This document shows, one piece after another, positions 2,149-51,034 of a stretch of DNA of 64,000 nucleotides; within the stretch, counting starts at the first letter, position 1; each line of letters starts with the position of its first letter. The notes under the pieces are model-generated. The model saw only the letters and a list, made by a program, of their open reading frames with translations. It did not search any database and was not told the origin of the DNA. The stretch is taken from assembly GCA_021814695.1 (NCBI GenBank), contig JAKAHY010000003.1, positions 20,692 through 84,691 on the forward strand, written 5' to 3'. Source of the DNA: a bacterium (GTDB taxonomy: Bacteria; Patescibacteriota; Minisyncoccia; UBA6257; JAGOQP01). Made by a program: the position numbers and the translations under genes.

Positions 2149-2607
2149 TTAGCTGAGGAGGTCGATGATGCCGTTCAGCTCGGCCGCCTCGCTGTTGAGC
2201 TTGACCGCTTCCATCTGGAGCTCGGTTGCCTTGGCGTCTGCCTTGCCCTTGGTTTCGTTGACCTTGTAGCTGATCCTGTTGTGGATGGCTGCGATCTTGG
2301 CCTCCAGCCTGGAGATCTTAGCCTCCATCTTGAGGATCATCCGGTCGATAACGTCGCGGGCGCTCGAGAGAACATTGCGCGCCGCATCGTTCAGAGCATG
2401 AGCGCCGCTGACCTTGGCCTCGCGCTCGGACCGGGCCTCGTCAAGAGCGACGAAGTTGATGCCGGCGGACTCCAGGAAGTCCTGGAGATCCTGGACGGCG
2501 TCCTGCGACGCCACCCGACCGCGCGCTTCCCACCGCGTGAGAAGCTTGCGCAGCTCCTCGAGTCCGTACTTCGCCTTGAAAAGGTGAGACAGGGTTGTGA
2601 TCTTCAC
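2149..2607 (-). CDS. Hypothetical alpha-helical / coiled-coil protein, 152 aa, GTG start. It sits in a ~60% GC island inside the AT-rich genome
   Basis: ORF with RBS AAGGGAG 7 nt upstream of GTG. Consensus promoter TTGACT-16-TATAAT (rc of 2710-2738). Terminator at 2072-2100. A/E/R/K-rich heptad-like sequence. Confidence 0.6.
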   Translation of the reverse strand: MKITTLSHLFKAKYGLEELRKLLTRWEARGRVASQDAVQDLQDFLESAGINFVALDEARSEREAKVSGAHALNDAARNVLSSARDVIDRMILKMEAKISRLEAKIAAIHNRISYKVNETKGKADAKATELQMEAVKLNSEAAELNGIIDLLS

Positions 2608-20594: not shown

Positions 20595-20713
20595 GCGGTG
20601 GGGAAAATGGGGCTATGGCCTCATTTTTTATATCGGCAGCAGTAACAAAATAAAATAAACGATAAAAGCATTTGACAAACGAATAAAATAATGATATAAA
20701 AAACCTACTGGAG

Positions 20714-20932
20714 GTGTTCTTGAAAGACCAAGCTTCGTGTCCGCGACTCGCTCAGGCAGAACCGTCCACCGAAGGTGGCAAAGCGCTGATCGATTGCATC
20801 GGTCCGTCCGAGAAGTGCTCGGACTGTCCGCTCCGTGACAGCGACTGCCAGATCGCCTGGTTCGGGCAGGAGCCCGACAGGTTCAACAGTTTCCAGCGCC
20901 GTCGGGCGCTCAAGGATCTTCTGGGGGATTAG
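20714..20932 (+). CDS. High-GC small Cys-containing protein (~70 aa; GTG at 20714 or TTG at 20720)
   Basis: Promoter TTGACA-17-TATAAA, RBS GGAGG, terminator CCAGGCGTCGCCTGG plus T7. Five Cys (CPRL...C...C..C...C). Confidence 0.5.
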   Translation: MFLKDQASCPRLAQAEPSTEGGKALIDCIGPSEKCSDCPLRDSDCQIAWFGQEPDRFNSFQRRRALKDLLGD

Positions 20933-21043
20933 CTCTTTATATGTTATTTGTTCGTGCCAGGCGTCGCCTGGTATTTTTTTACGTTTTTTCTTGATTTTAA
21001 ATTTGTTTTGGCTAAACTACAGGCAGTTCTCATTGGAGGGGAA

Positions 21044-22645: not shown

Positions 22646-22679
22646 ATCACGCATTTCGGCGATCGTCGAAATGCGTGAT
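22646..22679. promoter_or_regulatory. 13-bp perfect hairpin/palindrome ATCACGCATTTCG…CGAAATGCGTGAT between divergent genes
   Basis: Direct reading. Followed by GGGGTTGTTTTTTGGG on the + strand. Confidence 0.5.
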
Positions 22680-22741
22680 CGAGGGGTTGTTTTTTGGGAA
22701 ATTTTGTTTAGAATATCAGCAGTTCTTAATGGGAGGGTAAA

Positions 22742-23113
22742 ATGATGTCCCCTGAAAAGGAAAAAGCACTTGAAGATAAGTATCTGTTTTTTCGACCCGT
22801 CTGGGGAGTGGAATGCGGTGATGGCTGGTTTGGAATTATTGACGAGCTGTGCGCTAAACTTTCAAGGATGGATTTGAGTGGCGCAAGAATAGAATTTATC
22901 AAAGAAAAATTTGGTGGCATGAGAGTCGGACTTTCTCACGTCGGAGGGAAAAACTATGGAGACGCACTTTCTATTATTGAGTATGCCTACGATAGAAGCA
23001 TGGAGACATGCGAGGAATGCGGACGGCCCGGCATCTTGAGGGACATTAAGGGATGGTTTAAGACGTTGTGTGACGGATGTTTTGCCAAGACATTGAGTCG
23101 GTCGAATGAATGA
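22742..23113 (+). CDS. Hypothetical protein (123 aa) with a C-terminal CxxC…CxxC motif
   Basis: RBS GGGAGGG. CEECGRPG…CDGC. The stop overlaps the start of the next small ORF (ATGAATGA). Confidence 0.55.
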   Translation: MMSPEKEKALEDKYLFFRPVWGVECGDGWFGIIDELCAKLSRMDLSGARIEFIKEKFGGMRVGLSHVGGKNYGDALSIIEYAYDRSMETCEECGRPGILRDIKGWFKTLCDGCFAKTLSRSNE

Positions 23114-23255
23114 AATCAAAGTAGCAAATGCTATTTTACCGGAAGAGTTGAACCTCGCCGACGACGACAATTGTTGCCCGGCCTGGTCGGGACCAATTTC
23201 CGAATCACCGGATAAACCGATACGAGATGAATGTTGTGATGATGACGACGACTAA
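23106..23255 (+). CDS. 49-aa strongly acidic CC-motif peptide (MNEIKVANAILPEELNLADDDNCCPAWSGPISESPDKPIRDECCDDDDD), translationally coupled to 22742..23113
   Basis: ATG overlaps the upstream stop. Clean intrinsic terminator AAGACGACTTAAAGTCGTCTT plus T7 directly after. Below the ORF-track size cutoff. Confidence 0.45.
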   Translation: MNEIKVANAILPEELNLADDDNCCPAWSGPISESPDKPIRDECCDDDDD

Positions 23256-23338
23256 AACCAAAAGACGACTTAAAGTCGTCTTATTTTTTTATCTTGTTAA
23301 AAATAAAATTAAAATGCCATAAATGGCAGGGATTTTTT

Positions 23339-23580
23339 GTCACCCCTTTAATCGTAAAAGAGTGGCGCCAAAACTATTATATTTTTTATCTATGAAGAGA
23401 TGGTGGATATTTTGCTACTTTTTGGGTCGGCAAAAAGTAGCGCAAAAACCGACAGGCTTTTGCAAATCTTATAATTAATTTATTTCGTTTGGGCTTCTGT
23501 CCAAAACTCAACCTCATTACATTCGGGATTTAAACAGTTGGACAGATTGCTTTGCAACCGCCCTCACTCGCATAAATTAA
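23339..23580 (+). repeat. Repeat element copy 1 (hairpin CACCCCTTTA…AAAAGAGTGG followed by a ~200-nt conserved tail with CTGTCCAAAACTC…TTGGACAG)
   Basis: Alignable to 24705-24880 and partly to 49845-50040. Confidence 0.65.
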
Positions 23581-23730
23581 TTAGATAAGATTTTCGGCCT
23601 GGTGTTTCCCTTATGTCATTCCAGCGGACGCTGGAATCCAGTATTCATCTATAAGATTTCTGGCTCAGGCTTATAAAAAATAAAAAAAACAGCTTGGCAG
23701 ATGCCAAGCTTGATGAGGATGAAGAAGGGT

Positions 23731-24054
23731 TCAGTTTGTGTGAGGGGGCTTCTCAACGAAGCCGTTGTCTTCCGCCCAGGCACGGAAGTCCGGTCCGGCG
23801 ACCTGGACGATGTTCTTGATCTCGACGATGAAGATCGTGCGCGGTCGGTAGTCGGTCGGGTCGGTGAACGCCTCCAGCTCTTCTTTGCAGTAGGCGATAC
23901 CGGCGGCCGAGAACATCGGGTTCTGGAGCAGCACTACCGGCAGGCATCCGGAGGGGACGGCGTCCCACTCCAGCGTTTTTCCTGGCACCTCGGTCCCGTA
24001 TTCGACGAGGAAGGTCTCCTTACTCATGTTGCGCGGGTTGATGTAGTAGCCCAT
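23731..24054 (-). CDS. High-GC hypothetical protein (107 aa)
   Basis: Promoter TTGACT-17-TATTAT, RBS AAGGAG, terminator AAGCTTGGCATCTGCCAAGCT plus T-run. Confidence 0.55.
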   Translation of the reverse strand: MGYYINPRNMSKETFLVEYGTEVPGKTLEWDAVPSGCLPVVLLQNPMFSAAGIAYCKEELEAFTDPTDYRPRTIFIVEIKNIVQVAGPDFRAWAEDNGFVEKPPHTN

Positions 24055-24229
24055 TGCCCTCTCCTTTCTTTTCCTTATTTGAGTTAACAGCTAGTTAAAT
24101 AATAACATAATTAGTCAAATAAGTCAATAATTGAATATCAAATTCCTAATTACTAATGTCTAATTACTAACACACATAAGTAAAAAAAGTGGCCCATCTC
24201 CGAAGAGTTGGGCCGTTGGGTGCTGATTT

Positions 24230-24313
24230 CTACTTCCCGTTGGAAGAGTTGGCCTCCTCGATGAGGGGATCGAAGAAGCTGTTGAGTGCGTCGTCGAAGG
24301 TATCGAATTCCAT
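24230..24313 (-). CDS. 27-aa acidic peptide (MEFDTFDDALNSFFDPLIEEANSSNGK)
   Basis: Promoter TTGACA-16/17-TATACT, RBS AAAGGAGG 6 nt from ATG, intrinsic terminator GGCCCAACTC-TTCG-GAGATGGGCC plus T7. Confidence 0.45.
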   Translation of the reverse strand: MEFDTFDDALNSFFDPLIEEANSSNGK

Positions 24314-24704
24314 TTCCGGCCTCCTTTTGAAGTTCTAAACTGTTTAAAGTATAGCATAAAATTAAGATTTGTCAATAAGGTGTGATTAATTACTATTAAC
24401 TGTTTACTATTAACTGATTACTTGTTATCATTCAATTACAACTTAATAGAAGTTATCAAGAGTGGCGGGGAGGGAATTGGCCCCATGATCCGCCCAGCAA
24501 CTTGTCTTAGGTCTCGACGCTTAGGATAAAGTGCTAAATCCAATCCCCGAAGGCGTACTCGTCCTGAGCTCGCCGAAGGAGAGAGATAAGGTAGGTCGAT
24601 TTTTAATGCCTTTAAACTCTTTCCTTCTCGGGAGAGAGTTTTTCTTTGCCTCGTCGAAGCTTTAGCGAAGGCGGGTATTTATTATCCTTTCGGGCAATGG
24701 CTGT

Positions 24705-24880
24705 TTGCCACCCTTTTGACCGCAAAAGGGTGGCGTCTAAAACTCCCAGGCTTAACATATGCTTATAATTCAGTCGATTCGCGCTTCGCTCCTGTCCACA
24801 ACTCGCTTCGCTCAAACAAGTGGACAGCAAAACAGCTCGCGCTCATCTGACTGGATTAAATAAGCATATGTGGCCTGGCC
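24705..24880 (+). repeat. Repeat element copy 2 (hairpin CCACCCTTTTG-ACCG-CAAAAGGGTGG plus conserved tail CTGTCCACAACTC…GTGGACAG)
   Basis: Direct-orientation partner of copy 1. Compensatory changes preserve the stem. Confidence 0.65.
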
Positions 24881-24968
24881 GTTGAGAGTTATCACGGATA
24901 TCAAAAAATCCGTATAAATCCGTTACATCAGCATTAATCCGTGTAGTAATTAATATCTAACTAATAAC

Positions 24969-25172
24969 ATGATCATAAACGCAAACGATGAAAATAACAG
25001 AAAAGGTTTCATAATTGGAACCAGCGTGGCTCATCTGAAAAAATATAAAAAAACCGTAATACAAAGGGCGGTCGATAACGAACTCATTCCTATAAGTACT
25101 AAGGGAAAAACAAAAGAAGAGATTGTTAAAGAACTGATGAAACAAGCGAAACATATTATTGATCGCAATTAA
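24969..25172 (+). CDS. Hypothetical small basic protein (67 aa)
   Basis: ORF only. Confidence 0.35.
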   Translation: MIINANDENNRKGFIIGTSVAHLKKYKKTVIQRAVDNELIPISTKGKTKEEIVKELMKQAKHIIDRN

Positions 25173-25216: not shown

Positions 25217-26182
25217 ATGCTTAACGAAAAAATAAGAACCTGCGAATACGTCTCCCCAAAACATCCAGATAAAATCTGTGACCAAATTGCCGATGCTATT
25301 CTGTCCGCTTATCTGAAAAAAGACAAAAAAGCGCGGGTGGCGGTGGAAGTTATGGGCGGGCACGGAGTGATAAATATATCGGGAGAAATAACCAGTAAAG
25401 CGAAAGGCATAAAAATACGAGATATAGTAGAGAAAGTGATATATGAGGGAACCGATATAGATAGAGATAGATTGAGATACGGTGGAGATAATATAAAAAA
25501 TAGAGATAAATTAAAACACAATAGATACAAAATCAATATAAACATTACTCATCAAAGCCCGTTTATTGCGCATGGAGTGGATACCGGCGGAGCGGGAGAT
25601 CAGGGAGTTATGGTCGGCTATGCCTGCAACGAGACCAAATCGCTGATGCCTCTGGAATACGAACTGGCCAAAAATTTGTGCCTGAATATTTACAAAAAAT
25701 ATCCTTATGACGGAAAAACTCAGGTAACTATAGACGGCAAAAAAGTTACGGCAGTTGTCGCCAGTTTTCAAAACACCAAAACTCCGGAATTGGAAAAATT
25801 GGTCAGGCGGCTCATAAAATCGGAAAAATATTTTATCAATCCTGCGGGGGAATGGCCGGTCGGAGGATTTGACGCCGACAGTGGGCTTTCGGGAAGAAAA
25901 ATTGTAGTTGATGCTTACGGACCAAACGTTCCGGTCGGAGGCGGAAGTTTTGCCGGCAAAGACCTGACTAAAGTAGACCGAAGCGGAGCGATGATGGCCC
26001 GAAAAATTGCCGTTGAGCTTCTAAAAAAGCACAAAGCCAAAGAGGTGCTGGTGAAACTGGCTTATGTAATTGGCGTACAACAGCCGGTAATGGCAGTGGC
26101 TTTAGCTGATGGAAAGTTGATTGAAGTAAAAGGCAGGGATTTGAGTACGAAGGGGATAGTGGAAACTTTGAGTTTTATCTGA
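25217..26182 (+). CDS. metK: S-adenosylmethionine synthetase, unusually short (321 aa), with a low-complexity insert encoded by GATA-rich DNA
   Basis: HPDKICDQIADA, GAGDQGVMVGYA, and GGGSFAGKDLTKVDRSGAMMARKIA are MetK motifs. Confidence 0.82.
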   Translation: MLNEKIRTCEYVSPKHPDKICDQIADAILSAYLKKDKKARVAVEVMGGHGVINISGEITSKAKGIKIRDIVEKVIYEGTDIDRDRLRYGGDNIKNRDKLKHNRYKININITHQSPFIAHGVDTGGAGDQGVMVGYACNETKSLMPLEYELAKNLCLNIYKKYPYDGKTQVTIDGKKVTAVVASFQNTKTPELEKLVRRLIKSEKYFINPAGEWPVGGFDADSGLSGRKIVVDAYGPNVPVGGGSFAGKDLTKVDRSGAMMARKIAVELLKKHKAKEVLVKLAYVIGVQQPVMAVALADGKLIEVKGRDLSTKGIVETLSFI

Positions 26183-26221: not shown

Positions 26222-29200
26222 ATGCCCCAAAAGATCTCAGATTATATAACCGAGGTATCAGATAAATATAAAACTGGCCGTGCCGGAGAGCATGCTTATA
26301 GGCCCACTTTTGAAAAGCTCATTAAGTCGATAGATCCAAAACTTTCGATCATTAACGATCCGAAACGTACAGAACACGGAGCGCCTGATTTTATATTTGT
26401 AAGGGGAGACTTGATAGCGGGCTATGTTGAGACAAAAGATATAGATGAGGATCTTGATAAGACTGAAAAATCAGAACAGATAGAAAGATATTTAGGTTAT
26501 TCAAATCTAATTCTCACTAATTATCTCGAATTTCGTTTTTTTAGAAACGGAGAACATTATGGCGAGCATATTATTATAGGGAAGATAATTGACGGAGTCG
26601 TTAAAATTCAAGAAGATCAGATCAGTTCTTTGGAAGATGTTATTTTTGATTTTTTATCTGCTAAGCCAGAAGCTATAAAAAGTGGAATTCGTCTGGCAAA
26701 AATTATGGGAGGTAAGGCGCGCCGTATAAGAGATAGCGTAAAACAATTTCTGACTAAAGAATCGGAAGATAATCAAGAACTCTCGCGCGTTTACGAAACA
26801 ATAAAAAAACTTCTGGTTCACGATTTAACTTCCGAATCATTTGCGGATATGTACGCTCAGACTCTTGTTTATGGGCTTTTTGTGGCTCGTTATTATGACG
26901 AATCTCCGGATAATTTTACGCGTCAAGAAGCGCGTGATCTTATACCGGCATCAAATCCATTTCTGCGTCATTTCTTTGACCATATTGCTGGTCCGGATTT
27001 TGATAAACGATTAGCTTATATAGTAAATGAACTTTGTGAGGTTTTCTCGGTCGCGGATGTTCAAGTTCTCATGAGTCAGTATTTTAAGCAAGAGGATTTG
27101 TGGGGGAAGATACATAAAGGCCCTGATCCGGTTATCCATTTTTATGAGGATTTTTTAAAAGAATATGATTCTGAATTGCGTAAAAAAATGGGAGCATTTT
27201 ATACTCCATTACCAGTTGTAGATTTTATTGTCCGGTCAGTTGATTATCTCCTCAAAAAAGAGTTTAACTTATCCGGGGGCCTTGCTGATGCTACTAAGAC
27301 AGGGTTAGTGCACAAAGTTCAAATTCTTGATCCAGCCGTAGGGACGGGAACATTTATTAGTGAAATTATTCGTACTATCTATCAAAGTTTTTCTGGGCAA
27401 GAAGGACGTTGGCCGACTTATGTTTATCATGATCTTTTGCCTCGTTTACATGGCTTTGAATTAATGATGGCGCCTTACACCATTGCCCACCTTAAATTTA
27501 GTATGATGTTAAAGGAGACGGGTTTTAAACACTTTAACAATAGTAGGCTTGGTATCTATCTGACAAATTCTCTAGAGAATGGAGACGCTCAAGATAGTTT
27601 ATTTACAGGATTTGGTTTTGCCGAGAGTATTGCGGAGGAATCCAAAGAGGCGTCAAAAATCAAGAATGAAAAACCAATCATGGTTGTTGTTGGTAACCCG
27701 CCATATAGCATTAGCTCCTCGAATAAGGGTGAGTGGATTCTAAATCTTATTAAAGACTACAAAAAAGACTTGGGCGAAAGAAAAATTAATCTAGATGATG
27801 ACTATATAAAATTTATTCGTTTTGCAGAACATTTTATAGAAAAAAATGGAAGTGGTATTGTAGCTATGATAACCAATAATTCATTTATTGATGGAATTAC
27901 TCATCGTCAAATGAGGAAGCATTTATTGGAAACATTCGACAATGTTTATATTCTTAATTTGCACGGCAATTCTAAGAAAAAAGAAAAGTGTCCAGACGGT
28001 AGTAAAGATGAGAATGTTTTTGATATTCAACAAGGCGTATCTATTTCAATTTTTGTAAGAAAAGAAGGCAAAAAACAAGAATTAGGAAAAGTATTCCACT
28101 CTGAATTATACGGCAGACGTCAAGATAAGTTTGAGAAACTTAATTCTTTTGATTTAGAAAACATAAAATGGCAAAGACTTAATACCATAGAGCCTTATTA
28201 TTTCTTTATCCCAAAAGATTTTAGTTTGAGTGATTCTTATGATAACTTTTTCTCTATAACAGATCTGTTCAAAATTTATTCAGCAGGGATAAAAACTAAA
28301 GTTGATAACATATCAATAGACTTTGAAAGAGAATCACTCGGGAAAAGAGTTGAAGACATACTTACAAATAAATATTCATTGCAAGAAGTCATTAAAAAAT
28401 TTAGCTTGAATCCAAAAACTACCTGGGAATACAACAATGTTCTGAGGGCGAGTTTTAACGATAAAGTTTTGTCTTTCTATGATTATAGGCCGTTTGATAG
28501 AAGATTTATCTACTATGATAAAAATTTTCTTTCCAGAAGTAGATCGCAAGTAATGGATAATTTTTTTAATAAAGATAATATAGGCTTAGAAACTTCACGT
28601 ATGGGTGATTACATTTTTATTTCTAAAAATATTTCAGACGAGCATTTTGTTTCAGATAATTCATTTAAATTTCCACTTTATCTGTACCTAGATAATGGTC
28701 AGCAAATATCCAATCTTAAAAATGAGATCGTGGGAAAAATTACAGGAATTACTGGCAAAGCAGCTCCCATAGATATTCTTGATTATATTTATGCAGTCCT
28801 CCATTCGCCTAATTATAGAAAAAAATATGAGGAATTTTTAAAAATTGACTTCCCGCGGATACCATATCCAAAAGACAGAAAAACCTTTGAGAAATTAGTG
28901 AGTTTTGGAAAAGAGTTGAGAGAACTGCATCTTTTAGAATCTACAAAGCTTAAAAACTTTATCACGACATTTCCAGAATCAGAAAGTGATCTCGTTGAGT
29001 CAAAATATCCAAAATATAAGGATGGGAATGTTTATATAAATAGTACTCAATATTTTGGTAATGTTTCAGAAGTTATCTGGAATTTCTACATAGGAGGATA
29101 TCAACCTGCTCAAAAATGGCTTAAAGATCGCCAAGGCCGAAAACTTTCAAATGAAGACATTGAACACTATCAAAAGATGATTGTAGCTTTGATGGAGACA

Positions 29201-29242
29201 GACGGGGTTATAAAAGAAATTGATAAAATTTATGTTCAATAA
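26222..29242 (+). CDS. Type IIG restriction-modification enzyme (MmeI-like PD-(D/E)XK endonuclease fused to a gamma-class N6-adenine methyltransferase and a target-recognition region)
   Basis: N-terminal PD…ExK (APDFIF…GYVETKD), MTase motif I (ILDPAVGTGTF), motif IV (VVVGNPPYS). 1006 aa. Confidence 0.8.
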   Translation: MPQKISDYITEVSDKYKTGRAGEHAYRPTFEKLIKSIDPKLSIINDPKRTEHGAPDFIFVRGDLIAGYVETKDIDEDLDKTEKSEQIERYLGYSNLILTNYLEFRFFRNGEHYGEHIIIGKIIDGVVKIQEDQISSLEDVIFDFLSAKPEAIKSGIRLAKIMGGKARRIRDSVKQFLTKESEDNQELSRVYETIKKLLVHDLTSESFADMYAQTLVYGLFVARYYDESPDNFTRQEARDLIPASNPFLRHFFDHIAGPDFDKRLAYIVNELCEVFSVADVQVLMSQYFKQEDLWGKIHKGPDPVIHFYEDFLKEYDSELRKKMGAFYTPLPVVDFIVRSVDYLLKKEFNLSGGLADATKTGLVHKVQILDPAVGTGTFISEIIRTIYQSFSGQEGRWPTYVYHDLLPRLHGFELMMAPYTIAHLKFSMMLKETGFKHFNNSRLGIYLTNSLENGDAQDSLFTGFGFAESIAEESKEASKIKNEKPIMVVVGNPPYSISSSNKGEWILNLIKDYKKDLGERKINLDDDYIKFIRFAEHFIEKNGSGIVAMITNNSFIDGITHRQMRKHLLETFDNVYILNLHGNSKKKEKCPDGSKDENVFDIQQGVSISIFVRKEGKKQELGKVFHSELYGRRQDKFEKLNSFDLENIKWQRLNTIEPYYFFIPKDFSLSDSYDNFFSITDLFKIYSAGIKTKVDNISIDFERESLGKRVEDILTNKYSLQEVIKKFSLNPKTTWEYNNVLRASFNDKVLSFYDYRPFDRRFIYYDKNFLSRSRSQVMDNFFNKDNIGLETSRMGDYIFISKNISDEHFVSDNSFKFPLYLYLDNGQQISNLKNEIVGKITGITGKAAPIDILDYIYAVLHSPNYRKKYEEFLKIDFPRIPYPKDRKTFEKLVSFGKELRELHLLESTKLKNFITTFPESESDLVESKYPKYKDGNVYINSTQYFGNVSEVIWNFYIGGYQPAQKWLKDRQGRKLSNEDIEHYQKMIVALMETDGVIKEIDKIYVQ

Positions 29243-29294
29243 AATAAAAATAATATAAATTTTAAATAAGTTTTGATGATGGTACGATAATTTT

Positions 29295-31454
29295 ATGAAA
29301 AAAATACAATTAAAATTAGCAAATTGCTACGGAATTAAGAAATTAGAAAGAGATTTTGATTTTTCGAATAACGGTACTTATGTAATTTATGCTCCCAATG
29401 GAGTTATGAAAACTTCATTTGCGAAGACATTTAAAGACTTAAGTTTAGGATTAAATTCTAAAGATTTGATTTTTCCAGAAATAGAGACGATCCGTGAGAT
29501 TAATAAAGAGAACAATACTAATTTGTCTAAAGAGGAAGTTTTTGTTGTAGAGCCATATAATGAGGATTTTAATTCAGAAAAAATATCTACCCTTTTGGTT
29601 AATAAAGAATTGAAAGGCAGATATGATAAAATCCATTTAAAAATTGATGAAGAAAAGAGCGGGTTACTAAAAGAATTAAAAAACTTATCTGGATTTCGAG
29701 ATGATATCGAAGAAGAAATTTCTCAAGCTTTTACAAGTGAGGACGATAGATTATTTGATTCTCTAGAAAGGGTGGAAAAAGAAGTTATGGATATTTCAGA
29801 ACCTGTGTATTCTGATATTTCTTATAAAGAGATTTTCAATGAAAAGGTTCTAAATTTTCTGATGACTAAGGATTTCAAAGAAAAAATTGAGCAATATATT
29901 AAAAAATATGACGAATTAATTGAAAGTTCAAAATATTTTAAAAAAGGTATATTTAATCATAATAATGCATCAGTTATAGCCAAGAGTTTAGTAGATAATG
30001 GTTTCTTTAAAGCACAACATTCCATTTCTTTAAATACAAGAGAAAGTAAAAATGAAATTTACACCAAAGAAGAACTTGAAAAAGTCATTGATGAAGAAAA
30101 AAACGCTATATTGAATAACCCTGATTTGGTGAAAGTTTTTGAAGAGTTGGACAGCAAATTAAAAGCTAATAAAGAATTGCGTGATTTCAGAGATTATTTG
30201 TTAAATAATCCAAAAATTTTACCAGAACTGAAAAATCTTGATAGTTTTCGACAAAAATTATGGGTATCCTATTTTAAGAGTCAAAAAGATTTATACGAGA
30301 GTTTCTTAAAGGAATACCATTCTGGAAAAAGTGAATTGGACAAAATAATAGAACAAGCTAAAACAGAAGCAACGCACTGGATGGATGTGATAGACATCTT
30401 TAATGAAAGGTTTTCAGTTCCGTTTAAGCTTAGTATAAAAAATCAGGGTGATGTTATTTTAAAACGAGATGTTCCTAGTATCGCTTTTATATTTAAAGAT
30501 TCAAATGGCGAAGTTCCTGTAGAAAAATTAAATTTACTCCAAGTATTAAGTAGCGGAGAGAAACGTGCTCTGTATATCTTAAACATAATTTTTGAAGTTC
30601 AAGCAAGAAAAGAAGAAAATCAGGAAACCCTATTTATTATTGATGATATAGCAGATTCTTTTGACTATAAAAATAAATACGCGATTGTTGAATATTTGAA
30701 AGATATTTCGGAAGAAACAAATTTTTATCAAATAATTTTAACTCATAACTTCGATTTTTTTAGAACCGTTCAGAGCAGGTTTGTTCCTTATGATAATTGT
30801 TTAATGGTTGAAAAAACAACTGAAGAATTAAAAATAGTAAAAGCAGATTATATAAAAAATCCATTCAAATACTGGATGAATCATTTAGATGATGATAAAA
30901 AATTAATAGCATCAATTCCGTTTGTAAGAAATCTTATTGAATACACAAAAGACACAAACGATGATGATTTTTTGAAATTAACATCATTATTACACGTTAA
31001 ATCAAATTCCGATTCTATTTTTAAAAGCGATTTACAAAATATTTATAAAAGTATATTTCCTAACTTATCACTAACCTTAATAGGTAAAGATGAAAAGGTT
31101 ATTAATTTAATTTTTAATTTAGCAGATACCTGTTTAACTGCGACCGTAGGCATAAATCTAGAAAATAAGATTCTTCTTTCTATTGCTATTAGATTGGTAG
31201 CGGAAAAATTTATTTTAAGTAAGATAACTGATAAAAGTGAGATTGTCGGAAAACAAACAAGGAAACTTTTTGAAAGATTTAGAAATGAATTTAATAAAGA
31301 TAATTTTGAACAAGAAAATATTAAAATACTAGAGCAAGTTAATCTTATGACTCCAGAAAATATACACTTTAATTCATTTATGTATGAGCCTATTTTAGAT
31401 ATGTCGGATGATCATTTGAAAAACTTATATAACGAAGTGAAAAAATTAAAATAA
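29295..31454 (+). CDS. SMC/OLD-like ABC ATPase (719 aa) with a degenerate Walker A and a ~390-aa helical insert between Walker A and the signature motif
   Basis: The N-terminus follows the OLD/AAA_21 pattern (MKKIQLKLANCYGIKKLE…YAPNGVMKTSFAKT). Signature LSSGEKRALYIL, Walker B/D-loop LFIIDDIADSFD, H-loop ILTHN. Confidence 0.65.
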   Translation: MKKIQLKLANCYGIKKLERDFDFSNNGTYVIYAPNGVMKTSFAKTFKDLSLGLNSKDLIFPEIETIREINKENNTNLSKEEVFVVEPYNEDFNSEKISTLLVNKELKGRYDKIHLKIDEEKSGLLKELKNLSGFRDDIEEEISQAFTSEDDRLFDSLERVEKEVMDISEPVYSDISYKEIFNEKVLNFLMTKDFKEKIEQYIKKYDELIESSKYFKKGIFNHNNASVIAKSLVDNGFFKAQHSISLNTRESKNEIYTKEELEKVIDEEKNAILNNPDLVKVFEELDSKLKANKELRDFRDYLLNNPKILPELKNLDSFRQKLWVSYFKSQKDLYESFLKEYHSGKSELDKIIEQAKTEATHWMDVIDIFNERFSVPFKLSIKNQGDVILKRDVPSIAFIFKDSNGEVPVEKLNLLQVLSSGEKRALYILNIIFEVQARKEENQETLFIIDDIADSFDYKNKYAIVEYLKDISEETNFYQIILTHNFDFFRTVQSRFVPYDNCLMVEKTTEELKIVKADYIKNPFKYWMNHLDDDKKLIASIPFVRNLIEYTKDTNDDDFLKLTSLLHVKSNSDSIFKSDLQNIYKSIFPNLSLTLIGKDEKVINLIFNLADTCLTATVGINLENKILLSIAIRLVAEKFILSKITDKSEIVGKQTRKLFERFRNEFNKDNFEQENIKILEQVNLMTPENIHFNSFMYEPILDMSDDHLKNLYNEVKKLK

Positions 31455-31470
31455 ATAATTAAAAGATTTT

Positions 31471-32880
31471 ATGACCATAATGATTTTACTAATAATAAAT
31501 ACTTTTGGAATCGCTCTTTTGACATTTCTGTTTTTTAAGAATAAACAATCTGATAATGCCGGCCAAATAACAAAAGCTGTTGAGATTTTATTTGATAGAA
31601 TGGATAAGGCTTTTAAGGAAGAAATGTCTCTAAATAGAAAAGAGTCGGCAGACTCAGAAAAAAGATTACGCGAAGAAATTTCTAGCTCATTTAAGGGATT
31701 TGGAGATTCGCTTGATAAAAGAATGTCCGAACTTGCTAGTACTCAAAATAAGAATTTTGAAGGATTTTCTATAAAACTTACAGAATTAATTGATAAGAAT
31801 GATACAAAAATAGAAAAAGTCAGAGAAACAGTTGAAAGAAAGCTTGAAAATATACAAAAAGACAACGGCGAAAAATTAGAAATGATGAGGCAGACAGTAG
31901 ACGAGAAGCTCCAATCTACCTTAGAGAAGAGACTGGGAGAATCATTCAGGCAAGTAAGCGACAAACTGGATTCTGTCCATGTCGGGCTTGGAGAAATGAG
32001 AAATCTGGCGTCTGACGTTGGTGGTCTAAAAAAAGTTTTAACAAATGTAAAAACACGCGGTATCTGGGGTGAGGCACAACTGGGTGCTTTACTGGACCAG
32101 GTATTATCTCCGGAACAGTATGCAAGTAACGTTGCAGTTAAGCGTGATGGCAGAGAAAGAGTAGAATATGCTATCAAATTACCAGGCACTAAAGAAGACG
32201 GAAGTGATCCCGTGTGGTTGCCTATAGATTCAAAATTTCCTCAAGAAGATTATGATCGTCTAATTAGCGCATACGAACAAGCAGATGCCAATGCAATTGA
32301 TGTAGCGTCTAAACAACTGGAGCTTAGGATTCGCAATGAAGCCAAAAGTATCAACGAAAAATATATTGATCCACCCAATACAACAGATTTTGCCATATTA
32401 TTTTTACCATATGAAAGTTTATATGCAGAGGTTATTAGGCGCCCCGGTCTCTGCGAAACAATTCAAAGAAGCTACAGGGTTACAATAACGTGTCCGTCAA
32501 CATTGGGTGCTTTATTAACCAGTCTTCAAATGGGATTTAAAACTCTTGCTATACAAAAGAGATCAAGTGAAGTGTGGGAAGTGCTCGGAGCAGTAAAAAC
32601 GCAATTTGGTAAATTTTCTAACTTGCTCGAAAAAACTCAAAGACAATTGAAAACCGTAGCTGGTACAATTGAAGAAGCTACTAAAAAAACCAAGACAATT
32701 GAGGGTAAACTAAGAAAAGTACAACAATTACCAGAATCTTTATCAATTAAGGTACTAAAAGGAGTGGAAGAGTTGGAAAATAGCCAGGAGGATGCAGAAG
32801 GAATAGAAAAGACGTCAATTTCTGAGACGCAAGAAGATTTTTCAGATAAAGAGATTAGATCAGAAGACCTACCGTTTTAG
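31471..32880 (+). CDS. rmuC: DNA recombination protein RmuC, second full-length paralog (469 aa)
   Basis: TM helix, coiled coil, RmuC core DFAILFLPYESLYAEVIRRPGL…RVTITCPSTLGALLTSLQMGF. Confidence 0.85.
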   Translation: MTIMILLIINTFGIALLTFLFFKNKQSDNAGQITKAVEILFDRMDKAFKEEMSLNRKESADSEKRLREEISSSFKGFGDSLDKRMSELASTQNKNFEGFSIKLTELIDKNDTKIEKVRETVERKLENIQKDNGEKLEMMRQTVDEKLQSTLEKRLGESFRQVSDKLDSVHVGLGEMRNLASDVGGLKKVLTNVKTRGIWGEAQLGALLDQVLSPEQYASNVAVKRDGRERVEYAIKLPGTKEDGSDPVWLPIDSKFPQEDYDRLISAYEQADANAIDVASKQLELRIRNEAKSINEKYIDPPNTTDFAILFLPYESLYAEVIRRPGLCETIQRSYRVTITCPSTLGALLTSLQMGFKTLAIQKRSSEVWEVLGAVKTQFGKFSNLLEKTQRQLKTVAGTIEEATKKTKTIEGKLRKVQQLPESLSIKVLKGVEELENSQEDAEGIEKTSISETQEDFSDKEIRSEDLPF

Positions 32881-35800
32881 GTATCATTCTTCAATAAATC
32901 CTCCTCAAAACTTTTGATTCCGTTGAAGCCCATTTCTGCGTATTTTGATATGTCCGGAAAGTCGAGATTTATTATTTTCTTATAAACAATGCCTATTAAG
33001 GCCTTTAGGCGCTCAACTTCTTGCGGATCTATGTCCAGTGTTAGCCCAACGAGTTCTTTATGAAGGGGTTCTATAAAGCTTATAACTCCTTTATTTACCG
33101 TATATTTATTTCCGAATGCTTTGGAGTTTTCTATAAGGAGTTTATAGAATATTAACTGATTACGGTTGCGCCAGGCCTTAATTTTTGCGTACTGGTCGGT
33201 TGGGGACCAGCTATCTATTGGTTTTCCGGTTTTAAAATCCTCAACTATCATTTTGTTCCCTTCGATTTTTATTTTATCTATTCTTCCTGTTATGGGCGTT
33301 CCGTCTATAATTGCCCCCTCCTTTTTGAAATCAAATTCACTCTTATCGTCAATTGAAAAAGATTTCTTCTTCTGATTATAAAAGTTTTCAATTGCTTTCT
33401 GTCCTCTTTGCAGTAGGAGATCAAAATCCTTTTGGTTGAGCCGTCCGTTTTTTAGGGATTCTTCAAACCAAATTAACACCTCTTTAGTCGGAGGTAGTTT
33501 TTTATTATTTTTTAGGTAGTTGTATGTGCGTTTGATAGTTTCATGAGCGGCCGATCCAAGAATGCCACTTGGGGTCTTTGGTTCAGGAAATAAAAGCAGA
33601 TTTTTTTCAAAGAAAGTTGCTGGTCCGCCATCAACAACATTTAAGAAATTCTGTAAATGAGTAACGTTGAGTTTATAGTCGTCCAAAATTGGTTTTAAAA
33701 GCGCTTTTTCTTCGGCTACAAAAGGGGGAGTGTGCAACATATTTAATTGATCAACTAGCATCTCTTCCGGAACTCGATTAATATCTTTTATTTCAATAAA
33801 TTCTGGTTCAAAAGATTTTAAAGCACCTTCCGGGGATATAAATCCAAGGCGAGAAGATTCTTTTCCCTTGTTGTCATATTTATATGATGTCAGATATAAC
33901 AATCTTTTGGCTCTGGTGATGGCAACATAAAAAAGTCGGAGTTGATCATCTATATTGTCTCCTGCTGGGCTGATGGGTAAATTCGATGGCAGGGTTATAT
34001 TATTTCTACCTCGTCCGGTTCCGGCCCAGGAATCTTCCTGGCAATTTAAAACAAATACGGCTTCAAATTCCAATCCTTTGGCTTTGTGTGCGCTCATCAA
34101 TTGGACCGCTTCGTTGGAATTAATAAAAGGACTGGTGTTATTTATGGGGAGGTTGTTTTTTGTGTGGATGTCAAAAAATTCAATCATCTCTCCAATATTT
34201 ACTCTTTTACCACGTCTATATTCTCTTAGGGATTCAATAAATGATTTTAATGAAGATAGAAAATTTAAATAATCTGCTCTGTGTTTGGTAAATTTGTCCT
34301 TGTTAAAATAATAAGATCTAAATGGACTAAACATATCATTGCTACCCGCAGTTTCTTCCTCGGTTTTTTCATCTGAAAGGATTTGCTGGGGTCCACCAAT
34401 GAGCTCCTGGAGAACTTCTTCTGCCGTTGCGTAAGTTGCTAGTCCTCCCAAGTTAATGAAAAATTCCGCTATGTCACTTAGCTGTCCTCCTAATTCTTTC
34501 ATAACCATAAGCCACGGCTTGTTTTCTTTTATAGCCTTTATAGAAAGCTCCCAAATCATTGATCGTTTTATATTCCAGAACGGATAGTTTAATATCTCCG
34601 GTAAAAAGTTATCGGCATCGTCCGATTTTTTCATTATAGAGTCAACAAATTTGGCCATCGTGATAAGTTCCAAAATGTGCGGTTCCTGCAAAACATTTTG
34701 CTGGCGTTCGTAAGCAATTGGAATTTTAGCCATGTGGAAATAAGGAGCTAGAGATTCAAGGTCTTTATGTTCGCGAGCGATAACGGCAATTTCTTTGGGG
34801 GATATGCCTTGTTCAATCAATTTTTTTATTTCGGTTGTTATCCAATGATATTCTATTTCTTTGGAAGCAAATTCTTTTGAATGGATTTTTCCATCTTTTA
34901 TATTTTTATTACTGGCGATCAGCTCTTTTTTTAATTCTGGAAAGATATTTTCAAGACGATTAACACCTTTTTTAATTATAAGTTTTGCTGCGTCTAATAT
35001 GTCTTGAGTTGATCGATAATTTTCTTTAAGAACTATTAGCTCTGGTTTGCGGTATGTGTTTTGAAAACCGCTGACGTTGGTAATTTCTGCCCCCTGAAAT
35101 TTGAAAATTGCCTGGTCATCGTCTCCGACAACCATTATATTGGGTCTGCCTTCGTTGACAGGGTTATCAGTTAGAAGCTTCAATAACCTCATTTGGGCAT
35201 CATTGGTGTCTTGAAATTCATCCACAAGAATATATTGGTAGCGTTCCTGTAAGTCCAGTTTTACGTTTAAATTGTTTTCGAGCACGGAGATTGCGTCCAG
35301 GATCATATCGTCAAAATCATAATATTCGTTTTCTCTCAACTTCTTCATATATTTTTCGTATATGTCGGCTAACGCCTCCATCCTTTCGATGTTTAAAAGA
35401 TCGGTGATATGCCTGAATCCATCCTCGCCTTTTTCTGTCCATTCATTTTTCCATTCTGTTACTGGGGATGTTGCATTCAAATCCTCGGCGTTTTTGACGG
35501 CTTGGGCGAGTGAGTACGCTAGTGATTGAGCAAAAGGTCTAAAGAAGCCCGGTAATTTTTTAGATTTAAAAGCGCCGATCTCCTTGGCGGCTGAAATTGC
35601 GGCAGGATATAATTTTTTTGAGATCCTGTCATTAAAAACAGATTTGATTATTGGGTCTGCATGTTCTATTTCTTTTTTATTTTCGGCTAATATAGTTTTG
35701 AATTCATCCGGAGTAAGCCCGGCTTTTTTAAGATATTCGATCGCCTTTTTTGTTTTATATAAGTAAGTAAATTGACCATTGAACTCTGATCGCAGGGGAT

Positions 35801-36203
35801 TATCATATGGAAGTTCGGTAAATATTTTTTCTAATATTTCTGTCTGTGTTATCTGGTCAGCAGGAAGAAGAGTGGCGCCATTATAAAAATATTCCGGATA
35901 ATAATTTATTATTTCAACTCCAAAACTATGAAAAGTATGGATAGAAACTCTGTATGCGTCATGGCCGATAAGACCAGCTAATCGGTTGCGCATATTGAAT
36001 GCGGCGGCGTCGGTAAATGTTAAACACAATATATTTCCTGGGGAGGCGTCAGTATTTTTTAAAATATTAGCCACACGCAAGCTCAGAAGCTCGGTTTTTC
36101 CGGATCCCGGCCCGGCTATAACCATCACGGGGCCATCTATGGTATCAACGGCCTGTTTTTGTTGTTTATTTAAATTTTTAATCCTATCTTCAAATGTGCT
36201 CAT
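32877..36203 (-). CDS. UvrD/PcrA-like superfamily-1 helicase fused to a C-terminal RecB-family PD-(D/E)XK nuclease domain (1108 aa)
   Basis: Helicase motifs: AGPGSGKT, DEFQDTN, VGDDDQAIFKFQGA, NYRST. Nuclease motif: GRIDKIKIEGNKMIVEDFKTGK. Confidence 0.85.
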   Translation of the reverse strand: MSTFEDRIKNLNKQQKQAVDTIDGPVMVIAGPGSGKTELLSLRVANILKNTDASPGNILCLTFTDAAAFNMRNRLAGLIGHDAYRVSIHTFHSFGVEIINYYPEYFYNGATLLPADQITQTEILEKIFTELPYDNPLRSEFNGQFTYLYKTKKAIEYLKKAGLTPDEFKTILAENKKEIEHADPIIKSVFNDRISKKLYPAAISAAKEIGAFKSKKLPGFFRPFAQSLAYSLAQAVKNAEDLNATSPVTEWKNEWTEKGEDGFRHITDLLNIERMEALADIYEKYMKKLRENEYYDFDDMILDAISVLENNLNVKLDLQERYQYILVDEFQDTNDAQMRLLKLLTDNPVNEGRPNIMVVGDDDQAIFKFQGAEITNVSGFQNTYRKPELIVLKENYRSTQDILDAAKLIIKKGVNRLENIFPELKKELIASNKNIKDGKIHSKEFASKEIEYHWITTEIKKLIEQGISPKEIAVIAREHKDLESLAPYFHMAKIPIAYERQQNVLQEPHILELITMAKFVDSIMKKSDDADNFLPEILNYPFWNIKRSMIWELSIKAIKENKPWLMVMKELGGQLSDIAEFFINLGGLATYATAEEVLQELIGGPQQILSDEKTEEETAGSNDMFSPFRSYYFNKDKFTKHRADYLNFLSSLKSFIESLREYRRGKRVNIGEMIEFFDIHTKNNLPINNTSPFINSNEAVQLMSAHKAKGLEFEAVFVLNCQEDSWAGTGRGRNNITLPSNLPISPAGDNIDDQLRLFYVAITRAKRLLYLTSYKYDNKGKESSRLGFISPEGALKSFEPEFIEIKDINRVPEEMLVDQLNMLHTPPFVAEEKALLKPILDDYKLNVTHLQNFLNVVDGGPATFFEKNLLLFPEPKTPSGILGSAAHETIKRTYNYLKNNKKLPPTKEVLIWFEESLKNGRLNQKDFDLLLQRGQKAIENFYNQKKKSFSIDDKSEFDFKKEGAIIDGTPITGRIDKIKIEGNKMIVEDFKTGKPIDSWSPTDQYAKIKAWRNRNQLIFYKLLIENSKAFGNKYTVNKGVISFIEPLHKELVGLTLDIDPQEVERLKALIGIVYKKIINLDFPDISKYAEMGFNGIKSFEEDLLKNDT

Positions 36204-49785: not shown

Positions 49786-49844
49786 GTTTTTTATTGCTTT
49801 TAATCATAAACAAATGCTGCCAAAGTCGGCAGCTATTTTTATCA

Positions 49845-50040
49845 CCCTTTGTTCCGGCAAAGGGTGATACCTAAACCGGCAAGTTTTATATATTCTCTCA
49901 ATTAAATCAAAACAAATATTTCGCTTTATCTTGAACTCGTCCTCACTTTGTTCGGACTCAAACAATCAAGACAATTCTCACTTTTTATGAAAAGTGAAAA
50001 ATCGCTTATATTTGCTTGATTTAATTATGCTCGCATATAT
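49845..50040 (+). repeat. Repeat element copy 3 (hairpin TCACCCTTTG-TTCCGG-CAAAGGGTGA plus a partly conserved tail), directly upstream of the 50.2 kb RNA promoter
   Basis: Similarity to the hairpins at 23341 and 24714 and to the flanking …CTAAAAC… tail. Confidence 0.55.
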
Positions 50041-50216: not shown

Positions 50217-50993
50217 TATTGAAAATCAAATAAAAGGAGGGAGGTGAGTGGAGGCGCAAAAAAGCGCCAGCGTCCGAAACAACAACCGCTACTCGTCGAC
50301 CGCTAACCGACATCGTGTCGGTTCTCAGGGCCCGGACCGAAATCTTGCCCGTGGCCAGAGCCGATTATGACTACTGACCAATTGGTCAGAGTCAATCATG
50401 GCTTTTGGCCCAAGGCGGGGATTTGCGGCAAAGGGGTCCCGAACGCGGTAGTAAAGTCCATGGAGGGCACAATGCTTTAGACTAAGGCCTAAGGCCCAAT
50501 CCGACGACAGACGATCCGCCGAGCCTCCAAGCGCGCAAGGGGTGCGCGCTACTACATAAATGACCCCACGGAAAAAAACGTGAGCGGAGGAAAACACCGG
50601 ACCACCATCTGGCACAGAGTAAAGGACTCTGGATAGCCGGCAAACCGCCGCGCCCCAAGTTAAGACGACGAAGCGGCACAGGGGCGTGGCACGAGAGACG
50701 ACGGAGGAGCCACGAATGCATACACTCCGTAGACTCAACTCATAGAGGGATGAAGCGGCGCCTCTATGAGTAGCTGTCCGAACCCGGGAACGACAGGTTT
50801 CCCAGGGCGTGACGCCGCCGGTTAGGGAGAAGACGGAGCGCTCTCCCGCGTAAAAAATGCTCCAAAAGTACTTTGTGCCCCGGGGATAAATGGGCCAAAC
50901 CCTGGGTGGAACAGGCCTCGTAAGCGCGACCGCGTAAGTGTCCCGCAACCGGGAGCGTCCAGCAAGCAGTACGGACGCTCCTTTTTCTTTTTT
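50217..50993 (+). ncRNA. Candidate large structured ncRNA (~770 nt, ~62% GC) bounded by a consensus promoter and an intrinsic terminator (GGAGCGTCC…GGACGCTCC plus T-run). Identity unresolved
   Basis: Sharp GC jump relative to the flanks. Many internal stems, e.g. CUCAUAGAGG…CCUCUAUGAG. All + strand frames are closed (the track shows no + strand ORF of 60 aa or more). The only long ORF (50325..50948, minus) is antisense to the promoter and terminator and is composition-driven. Confidence 0.55.
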
Positions 50994-51034
50994 AAATATT
51001 CACTAATATTTTTTTATAATGATATAATTAGCTT

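Follow-up and report, generated by a model that had tools for sequence, protein, structure and literature searches.

Several groups of described small proteins and genes resemble parts of a cluster of small genes in a 64,000-nt stretch of patescibacterial DNA (GenBank assembly GCA_021814695.1, contig JAKAHY010000003.1; the whole stretch is called the window hereafter), in which four open reading frames (ORFs) encode products of 123, 49, 107, and 27 amino acids (aa). TraR/DksA proteins (TIGR02419, Pfam zf-dskA_traR) are small acidic mobile-element proteins with a C-terminal CExCG...x16...LCxxC ribbon, and the restriction-alleviation proteins Lar and RalR (PF14354, NF007260) are small zinc ribbons borne by prophages. 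Phage morons are accessory genes with their own promoters and terminators, and in a classical moron the unit in its entirety is atypical in composition. A further group consists of small acidic phage inhibitors and DNA mimics such as T7 Ocr and gp5.9; the known DNA mimics are folded proteins with ordered carboxylate arrays. No literature was found on the motifs of the families described below or on the assembly accession. We show that small acidic protein genes of the mobile-element type form a variable islet here, consisting of three separate transcription units, and that the four genes are gained and lost independently among relatives. The explanation that we prefer, at slightly better than an even chance, is that these units are captured, moron-like accessory genes whose products may be modulators in phage-host conflict.

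The composition of the region was compared with that of corresponding stretches of relatives (loci L001, L002, L003, L006, L007, and L174; P0011, P0188, and P0281 denote homologous proteins). Scans of genomes and metagenomes aimed at close relatives brought up only distant ones and not the window's own genome. DNA comparison revealed that L002 contains the 123-aa gene, the 49-aa peptide gene, an intergenic repeat, and a 55-aa ORF in place of the 27-aa ORF, and lacks the 107-aa cassette. L006 and L007 contain a 107-aa homolog, the repeat, and the 123-aa gene, with both the peptide gene and the 27/55-aa gene absent. In L003, metK is followed directly by the 123-aa gene alone, and in L001 the 123/49 pair lies in a different neighborhood with a changed gene order. 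What the compared loci have in common is proximity to metK. An earlier note on this DNA had suggested a new small-protein module; the parts of the supposed module vary independently, and the two larger proteins are not new, being members of large families tied to phages and plasmids.

The four tiny genes are almost certainly real. An ORF check bore out their positions and the overlap between the stop codon of the 123-aa gene and the start codon of the peptide gene, both described in the earlier note (Table 1). That note had also considered that the peptides might lack conservation or carry stop codons in homologs. This was not the case, because the ORFs are genuine, conserved genes: homologs number thousands for the 123-aa protein and hundreds for the 107-aa protein, the 49-aa peptide occurs beside the 123-aa gene in four loci, and the ratios of nonsynonymous to synonymous substitution rates (dN/dS) of these three genes, 0.12-0.26, indicate purifying selection. 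The strong expression signals described for the cluster were confirmed, with some corrections. The two best promoters of the region in a consensus scan are near-consensus and lie exactly upstream of the two minus-strand genes, both of these genes have good ribosome-binding sites (the Shine-Dalgarno sequence GGAGAGGG at about 24058-24065 for the 107-aa gene and a correctly spaced AAGGAGG at about 24320-24326 for the 27-aa gene), and the region contains 10 terminator-like sites versus 2.4 +/- 1.4 in shuffled sequences. In contrast, the promoter of the 123-aa gene (TTGTTT at 22687-22692, a 16-nt spacer, and TAGAAT at 22709-22714) is modest, and its 8/12 score is under the threshold of the scan, yet it is kept in five loci; downstream of it come the leader CAGTTCTTA, also conserved, and GGGAGGG at 22731-22737, a strong Shine-Dalgarno sequence. 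The 49-aa ORF itself lacks a good Shine-Dalgarno sequence, and its translation relies on coupling to the 123-aa gene. The terminator of the 123/49 operon is conserved in L007, where it stands directly after the 123-aa stop codon. That of the 27-aa gene was read by eye from the sequence, since a single stem mismatch kept it out of the terminator scan; it shares 90% identity with its L002 counterpart, and the promoter and leader of the same gene are 79% identical in L002. These signals delimit the 123/49 operon, the monocistronic 107-aa gene, and the 27-aa ORF as three units, all of whose products are acidic with isoelectric points (pI) of 4.0-5.5 (5.5 for the 123-aa protein). The high GC content noted earlier for the two minus-strand genes was likewise evident, with GC contents at third codon positions (GC3) of 0.83 and 0.82 against a window mean of 0.44. 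The statement that nothing else is encoded in the 1.9 kb did not hold: a structured repeat of about 200-290 nt occupies positions ~23328-23622. The divergent promoter region upstream of the 123-aa gene also contains a 34-nt near-perfect palindrome (ATCACGCATTTCGGCGA/TCGTCGAAATGCGTGAT; 22646-22679), which is present in L002 and L007 and absent from L001 and L003, and which may be an operator or a leader hairpin.

Table 1. Genes, expression signals, and structured repeat of the four-ORF region (window coordinates)
Feature	Position	Strand	Details
Upstream region of 123-aa gene	22687-22741	+	Conserved blocks in five-locus alignment
123-aa acidic protein gene	22742-23113	+	C-terminus CEECGRPG...CDGC
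49-aa very acidic peptide gene	23106-23255	+	ATG overlaps 123-aa stop: ATGAATGA, 8-nt overlap
Intrinsic terminator, bidirectional, closing 123/49 operon	23262-23282	.	9-bp stem, then ATTTTTTTAT
Structured intergenic repeat, copy e1	23328-23622	+	Extra short hairpin 23328-23375 plus full element 23402-23622; nhmmer E=1e-51
Intrinsic terminator of 107-aa gene	23691-23710	-	8-bp stem, 5 GC pairs, then T8 run
107-aa acidic protein gene	23731-24054	-	GC3 0.83
Near-consensus sigma-70 promoter of 107-aa gene	24099-24127	-	TTGACT-17-TATTAT, 10/12, with TG
Intrinsic terminator of 27-aa gene	24182-24214	-	GGCCCAaCUC-UUCG-GAGaUGGGCC, 9-bp stem, UUCG loop, U7 run
27-aa acidic ORF	24230-24313	-	MEFDTFDDALNSFFDPLIEEANSSNGK; GC3 0.82
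Near-consensus sigma-70 promoter of 27-aa gene	24348-24375	-	TTGACA-16-TATACT, 11/12, with TG

The 123-aa protein has five close homologs with 66-82% identity, and dN/dS of its gene relative to orthologs is 0.12-0.18. A profile built from close homologs retrieved 13,619 proteins at E<=1e-3 and 3,547 at E<=1e-10 from 1.84 billion cluster representatives, which places the protein, as judged by sequence, in a very large uncurated family that is common on phages, viral contigs, and plasmids. An alignment of 62 members exhibited a common architecture composed of ECGDGW, a helix ending in LC, (Q/I)VKEKFGGLRFY, AE..S, and CExCG..G-x-GW..TLCxxC, in which G28, W29, C90, C93, G94, and C110 are invariant and the KEKFGGLR positions (K54-E55-K56-x-G58-x-L60-R61) are conserved in >=90% of the members. 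The window protein carries the family motifs GDGW and KEKFGG(L/M)R, with Met at the L60 position, together with a C4 ribbon; its C-terminal zinc ribbon has the form CxxC-x16-CxxC, and the protein contains six Cys residues altogether. Across the family, the fourth zinc ligand is Cys or, in some members, His. At least 529 confirmed stretches in IMG/VR carry the family. Other carriers are the genomes of huge phages, two cultured phages, and 36 plasmids that come from many phyla; on the plasmids, nearly all members are annotated as hypothetical proteins and one as TraR/DksA. A DNA ligase and an exonuclease accompany the gene in only one phage subgroup. Apart from a weak zinc-ribbon match, the window protein matched nothing significantly in Pfam, PHROGs, NCBIfam, or PADLOC, and scans of curated libraries with the 62 members and with multi-domain members found no model for the family. 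No solved structure was found among family members, and sequence searches of the PDB gave weak zinc-ribbon matches only. The AlphaFold model of the 123-aa protein is weak (predicted local distance difference test score, pLDDT, 65), with helices at residues 4-13, 29-41, and 72-87 and no evident coiled-coil hairpin.

Among described proteins, TraR/DksA came closest in sequence. In a profile search against the PDB, DksA, TraR, and YbiI matched at E=0.08, 0.09, and 0.22, respectively. Furthermore, one of the 62 family members matches TIGR02419 at E=9e-4, and another matches a PHROG family described as DksA-like. However, the window protein itself gave no match at E<=1 to the TIGR02419 and zf-dskA_traR models, the GDGW/KEKFGGLR N-terminal core of its family has no counterpart there, and the N-terminal coiled coil with an acidic tip, which inserts into the secondary channel of RNA polymerase and defines DksA/TraR function, was not detected in the low-confidence model mentioned above. 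The likeness to Lar/RalR is weak. A Type IIG restriction-modification gene lies near the window cluster, and RalR matches the window protein at E=0.076 and Lar_restr_allev matches the member P0188 at E=0.003. These scores are far under the curated cut-offs and the alignments cover only the ribbon.

The 49-aa peptide is a genuine accessory partner of the 123-aa gene and is confined to this lineage, because its frame is kept open and is under selection, its adjacency to the 123-aa gene is kept, and it is absent from L003, L007, and distant loci. Homologs follow the 123-aa gene in L002 (47 aa), L001, and L174, and P0281, a close variant of the L002 peptide, provides a fifth sequence. From the upstream stop codon to the terminator, the peptide frame is the only one free of stop codons in all four loci; each of the other two contains 1-5. 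The comparison of the window with L002 gave proportions of synonymous and nonsynonymous differences (pS and pN) of 0.62 and 0.24 and dN/dS of 0.23, while that of L001 with L174 gave dN/dS of 0.16, as compared with 0.18 for the upstream 123-aa gene in the same pair. Codon comparisons thus clearly point to purifying selection on the peptide gene. The peptide has a net charge of -12.5 (-11.5 to -14.4 among homologs of 44-49 residues) and consists of a conserved core, P.E(V/L/I)N(L/I).DD..C(C/F)P.W, a variable Pro/Ser-rich middle part, and a poly-Asp C-terminus. The two genes stay adjacent in the four loci while their flanks rearrange: in L001, the pair is flanked by a Fic gene on one side and the 3' end of a secreted-protein gene on the other, and in the window it lies beside the 5' end of that secreted-protein gene. 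The peptide is absent after the 123-aa gene in L003 and L007, where a terminator directly follows the 123-aa stop codon. No comparable coupled acidic Cys peptide was found in ~100 distant loci of the 123-aa family, nor did a Rosetta-stone test find a family member with an acidic peptide as a fused tail. Searches of Pfam, PHROGs, NCBIfam, and PADLOC with the peptide likewise returned nothing significant.

The 107-aa gene likewise belongs, on the evidence of homology searches, to a phage-borne family. A profile search yielded at least 257 proteins at E<=1e-3, nearly all of 85-110 aa and none with a Pfam domain. Conservation begins at Met1 with MGYY(I/V)NP..SKE.FL...LPV.LVDNG.FTAAGIAYS..EL.AF..P.D.RP(K/R); in a 109-member alignment, K12 and N45 never vary, and another 16 positions show conservation in >=90% of the sequences. 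The window protein carries the conserved positions, with Q-N-P replacing D-N-G, and dN/dS of its gene is 0.12-0.26. AlphaFold with 109 sequences gave a confident alpha/beta model (pLDDT 91.8; predicted template modeling score, pTM, 0.83), for which no structural neighbor was matched, and searches of Pfam, PHROGs, NCBIfam, and PADLOC returned nothing significant. One search pattern located the family in 48 IMG/VR loci on contigs of 5.6 to 279 kb, and GenBank phages gave no match. The phage members sit in arrays of small genes on the same strand, some beside genes for DNA ligase, PARP, NADAR, or RNA ligase; stand-alone copies also occur in cellular contexts, and clustering identified no neighbor that recurs in more than 6 of 51 loci. 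Phage copies next to genes related to NAD or ADP-ribose include those in L005 (8001-8285; NAD-dependent DNA ligase and PARP), L015 (7001-7309; NADAR), and L004 (1619-1903). In L007, the 100-aa homolog P0011 seems to be frameshifted near its C-terminus (648-749 vs 425-727), with the conserved ...DNGFVEKPP... ending readable in another frame.

Public gene calls on long contigs (GCA_027341185.1 contig DAIENI010000001.1, GCA_027423275.1, and some Logan contigs) give an antisense 128-aa ORF at 23701-24087 (+) instead of the 107-aa gene and also omit the 49-aa and 27-aa ORFs; correct calls are found in some short Logan contigs only. The sequenced samples that contain the locus include SRR13300764 and SRR13299515. 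This miscalling is probably due to the atypical GC3-rich codon usage. We considered the antisense ORF as a real gene or a dual-coding partner and rejected both possibilities. Among 52 family members, the antisense frame spans the gene in 9 of 17 copies with GC3 >=0.6 and is interrupted in every copy below 0.6, and because it is open only in some GC3-rich copies, we regard it as a shadow ORF. An interpretation of the GC-rich block as RNA was also rejected on the basis of codon periodicity, protein homologs, and the confident fold.

The 27-aa ORF is probably translated, as far as comparison with a relative can tell, and is the least secure of the four. Its sole available counterpart is the 55-aa ORF of L002, which occupies the corresponding place and has promoter, leader, and terminator in common with it; no further homologs were found in the protein collection, viral contigs, or GenBank phages, and Pfam, PHROGs, NCBIfam, and PADLOC gave nothing significant for the product. 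The two ORFs differ by an internal indel that is in-frame because it is 84 nt long, while the N-terminus ME..TFD....L..FFDP(L/I)I, the C-terminus EA..SN.K, and the stop codon are kept. The 27-aa ORF is best read as an in-frame-shortened version of the 55-aa ORF. It is unlikely, although with an appreciable chance, that some of the small ORFs are untranslated, in particular that the 27-aa ORF makes up the body of a small RNA or is what remains of the 55-aa gene in decay. Such a view would account for the single ortholog, for dN/dS of 0.44 calculated on just 27 codons, for a length half that of the counterpart, for a promoter and leader as conserved as the ORF itself, and for its absence from protein collections. 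It is less easily reconciled with the well-spaced Shine-Dalgarno sequence, with a clear codon-position periodicity and a GC3 of 0.82 that rises to 0.84 in the ortholog, or with an indel of exactly 84 nt that leaves the stop codon and the two ends of the protein intact. For the 49-aa and 107-aa ORFs, homologs, fold, and selection exclude an untranslated nature.

The remaining alternatives concern the 123/49 pair. If the pair were a toxin-antitoxin-like or other self-contained unit, the 123-aa protein and the peptide would neutralize each other and serve in addiction or abortive infection. The overlapping stop and start codons, the single shared terminator, the mobility of the pair relative to its flanks, the tie of the family to mobile elements, the nearby defense island, and the strong acidity of the small partner are all in keeping with this idea, to which we nevertheless give only a slim chance: the 123-aa family is overwhelmingly solitary, with no acidic partner in ~100 other loci, L003 and L007 hold an intact 123-aa gene without the peptide so that the two genes are no obligate unit, neither product matches a toxin or antitoxin in Pfam, NCBIfam, or PADLOC, and known toxins do not resemble a disordered poly-Asp peptide of 44-49 aa. 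Slighter still is the chance of a metal-handling pair, in which Cys residues of both products would bind or transfer metal as a metallochaperone or through a shared zinc or iron-sulfur site. The metal-chaperone likeness suggested by the earlier note drew on the combination of a small Cys-rich peptide with a coupled partner, and indeed the 123-aa protein has six Cys residues including a C4 ribbon with Cys or His as the fourth ligand across its family, and the first CC of the peptide, beside acidic residues, is found in four of the five sequences. However, it is CF in L174, the C-terminal CC is absent from at least three of the four other sequences and appears to occur in the window only, and the single invariant Cys (C(C/F)P.W) leaves no conserved set of metal ligands; the peptide is not needed to complete the zinc ribbon anywhere in the 123-aa family, and no metal transporter or regulator is conserved nearby. 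The other likeness drawn at that time, to the precursor and partner of a ribosomally synthesized and post-translationally modified peptide (RiPP), would require a distant enzyme that modifies the 49-aa peptide and a chaperone role for the 123-aa protein, and is scarcely credible. A small Cys-containing peptide is indeed coupled to a partner gene, and an HlyD/ABC/MacB exporter lies 3-7 kb upstream. That no modification enzyme is nearby was correctly observed, since Pfam scans revealed none within ~10 kb, and no radical-SAM, YcaO, LanB/C/M, or other maturase was detected among the window ORFs between positions of ~12 kb and 40 kb or in the 12-kb L001 locus. Furthermore, the 123-aa protein has no match to the RiPP recognition element (RRE) or PqqD in Pfam or NCBIfam (the AlphaFold model being too weak to judge its fold), synteny between the pair and the exporter is absent in L001, the conserved parts of the peptide are an N-terminal motif and a poly-Asp tail rather than a leader and core with retained Cys residues, and thousands of occurrences of the 123-aa family have no such peptide beside them.

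The 107-aa and 27-aa genes share their unusual composition with a third gene of the window, a coiled-coil-like 152-aa ORF (2149-2607, minus strand; GC3 0.84) that has an 11/12 promoter (2737-2710) and a strong terminator (2095-2073) and gave no Pfam match. All three combine near-consensus promoters and strong terminators with GC3 of 0.82-0.84, whereas GC3 in 62 long window ORFs has a mean of 0.44, a standard deviation of 0.08, and a maximum of 0.63. The high GC is confined to the coding sequences: the promoters are AT-rich, and the enrichment ends abruptly where the coding sequences do. Translational selection for C-ending codons was considered as the cause and rejected, because G-ending codons are equally enriched (0.90 for C-ending and 0.83 for G-ending codons, against backgrounds of 0.41 and 0.35) and GC3 of GroEL is ordinary. 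On phage contigs, GC3 of the 107-aa family follows the flanking GC content, and only the cellular copies (window, L007, and L008) lie far above their flanks. The 27/55-aa pair retains its high GC3 across two genomes.

Taking these results together, we propose that the genes of the islet behave like phage morons, that is, that they are accessory genes with their own promoters and terminators that would have been captured from phages or plasmids. In line with this proposal, a near-consensus promoter, a terminator, and a strong ribosome-binding site accompany each of the 107-aa, 27-aa, and 152-aa genes, whose composition marks them as foreign within the genome, and relatives differ in whether they contain the 107-aa cassette. 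The products most likely, although this is said tentatively, act as small protein-binding modulators in phage-host conflict and not as enzymes, because all of them are acidic and none matches a catalytic family in Pfam, PHROGs, NCBIfam, or PADLOC. In such a scheme, the zinc-ribbon 123-aa protein might bind a partner macromolecule, and in this lineage the disordered acidic peptide might dock on it through the conserved N(L/I).DD..C.P.W motif, with the poly-Asp tail possibly serving as a regulatory or nucleic-acid-mimicking appendage. The peptide resembles the DNA mimics in its extreme negative charge, its small size, and its phage-associated gene context; unlike them, it looks largely disordered with one short conserved motif.

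Several observations weigh against the capture of moron-like conflict genes. The term moron is an analogy only, because the contig looks cellular and not like a prophage; the window genes lie outside any recognizable prophage, and their GC anomaly is limited to coding sequence, unlike that of a classical moron. The sharp GC3 boundary, at values of 0.82-0.84, is not easily explained by simple recent transfer. The 27-aa ORF depends on a single ortholog, and the sole model of the 123-aa protein, to which the peptide would bind, is weak. In addition, neither the 123-aa nor the 107-aa family has a characterized member, a solved structure, or a recurrent neighbor. To a bolder interpretation we assign a small chance. 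In this interpretation, the 123-aa protein and the peptide would together constitute a two-component effector in phage-host conflict of a kind not described before, such as a zinc-ribbon adaptor that delivers a tail mimicking nucleic acid. Independently of this, the three genes whose GC3 reaches 0.82-0.84, although the GC content of the genome is 41.5%, would reflect a selected regime of small-protein expression, for example, mRNA protected from AU-directed cleavage, and not recent transfer.

The structured repeat belongs to none of the four genes. The element of ~200 nt consists of a 12-bp hairpin and a long imperfect hairpin, and the window contains three copies (23402-23622, 24695-24897, and 49829-49993, all given for the plus strand). 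It is found at orthologous places in L001 (11230-11442), L002 (801-1028), and L007 (825-1046), and also in L006. The repeat folds far better than shuffled sequence (z = -9.0), and a comparison of five copies showed compensatory changes at 27 of the 63 pairs predicted. No Rfam family was matched, and a search of viral contigs gave pattern matches at chance level only. A noncoding RNA, an element resembling a miniature inverted-repeat transposable element, and a recombination site are candidates for its nature.

The cluster sits between a conserved secreted-protein gene and a locus of metK and an S-adenosylmethionine (SAM) riboswitch, the latter bordering a defense island. Upstream of the cluster are genes for an extracytoplasmic function (ECF) sigma factor and DUF5666 proteins as well as the exporter mentioned above. 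The low-GC defense island (26222-36203) begins directly after metK and encodes the Type IIG restriction-modification enzyme (PADLOC E=1.5e-281), a PDC-S46 candidate with a full-length match (PADLOC, E=5e-282), RmuC, and a UvrD/PD-(D/E)XK helicase-nuclease. Pfam and PADLOC scans of the flanks revealed no integrase or phage structural genes; the neighbors are cellular or defense genes. The SAM riboswitch (RF00162, 49 bits) with its terminator occupies 24450-24641 (+), ~575 nt upstream of a short metK of 321 aa (25217-26182, plus strand). This distance between riboswitch and gene is unusual, and the gap holds copy e2 of the repeat and a 67-aa ORF (24969-25172). Two further islands of GC-rich sequence (0.57-0.58) were observed in the window. 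That at 50221-51000 contains a 207-aa ORF (50325-50948, minus strand) with GC1, GC2, and GC3 (GC contents at the three codon positions) all about 0.58, which may not be coding because it has no codon-position periodicity, and that at 20701-20970 contains a Cys-rich 72-aa ORF called in public annotation; no Rfam family reached the gathering threshold in either.

The cluster itself represents no new biosynthetic or metal-handling system; it adds new members to uncharacterized, widespread families, together with one lineage-specific peptide partner. It also exposes an annotation error, in that genes with very high GC3 in an AT-leaning genome are called on the wrong strand or missed in public records. 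The two abundant mobile-element families, which no curated library covers, are candidates for curation and for screens for anti-defense or host-takeover functions.

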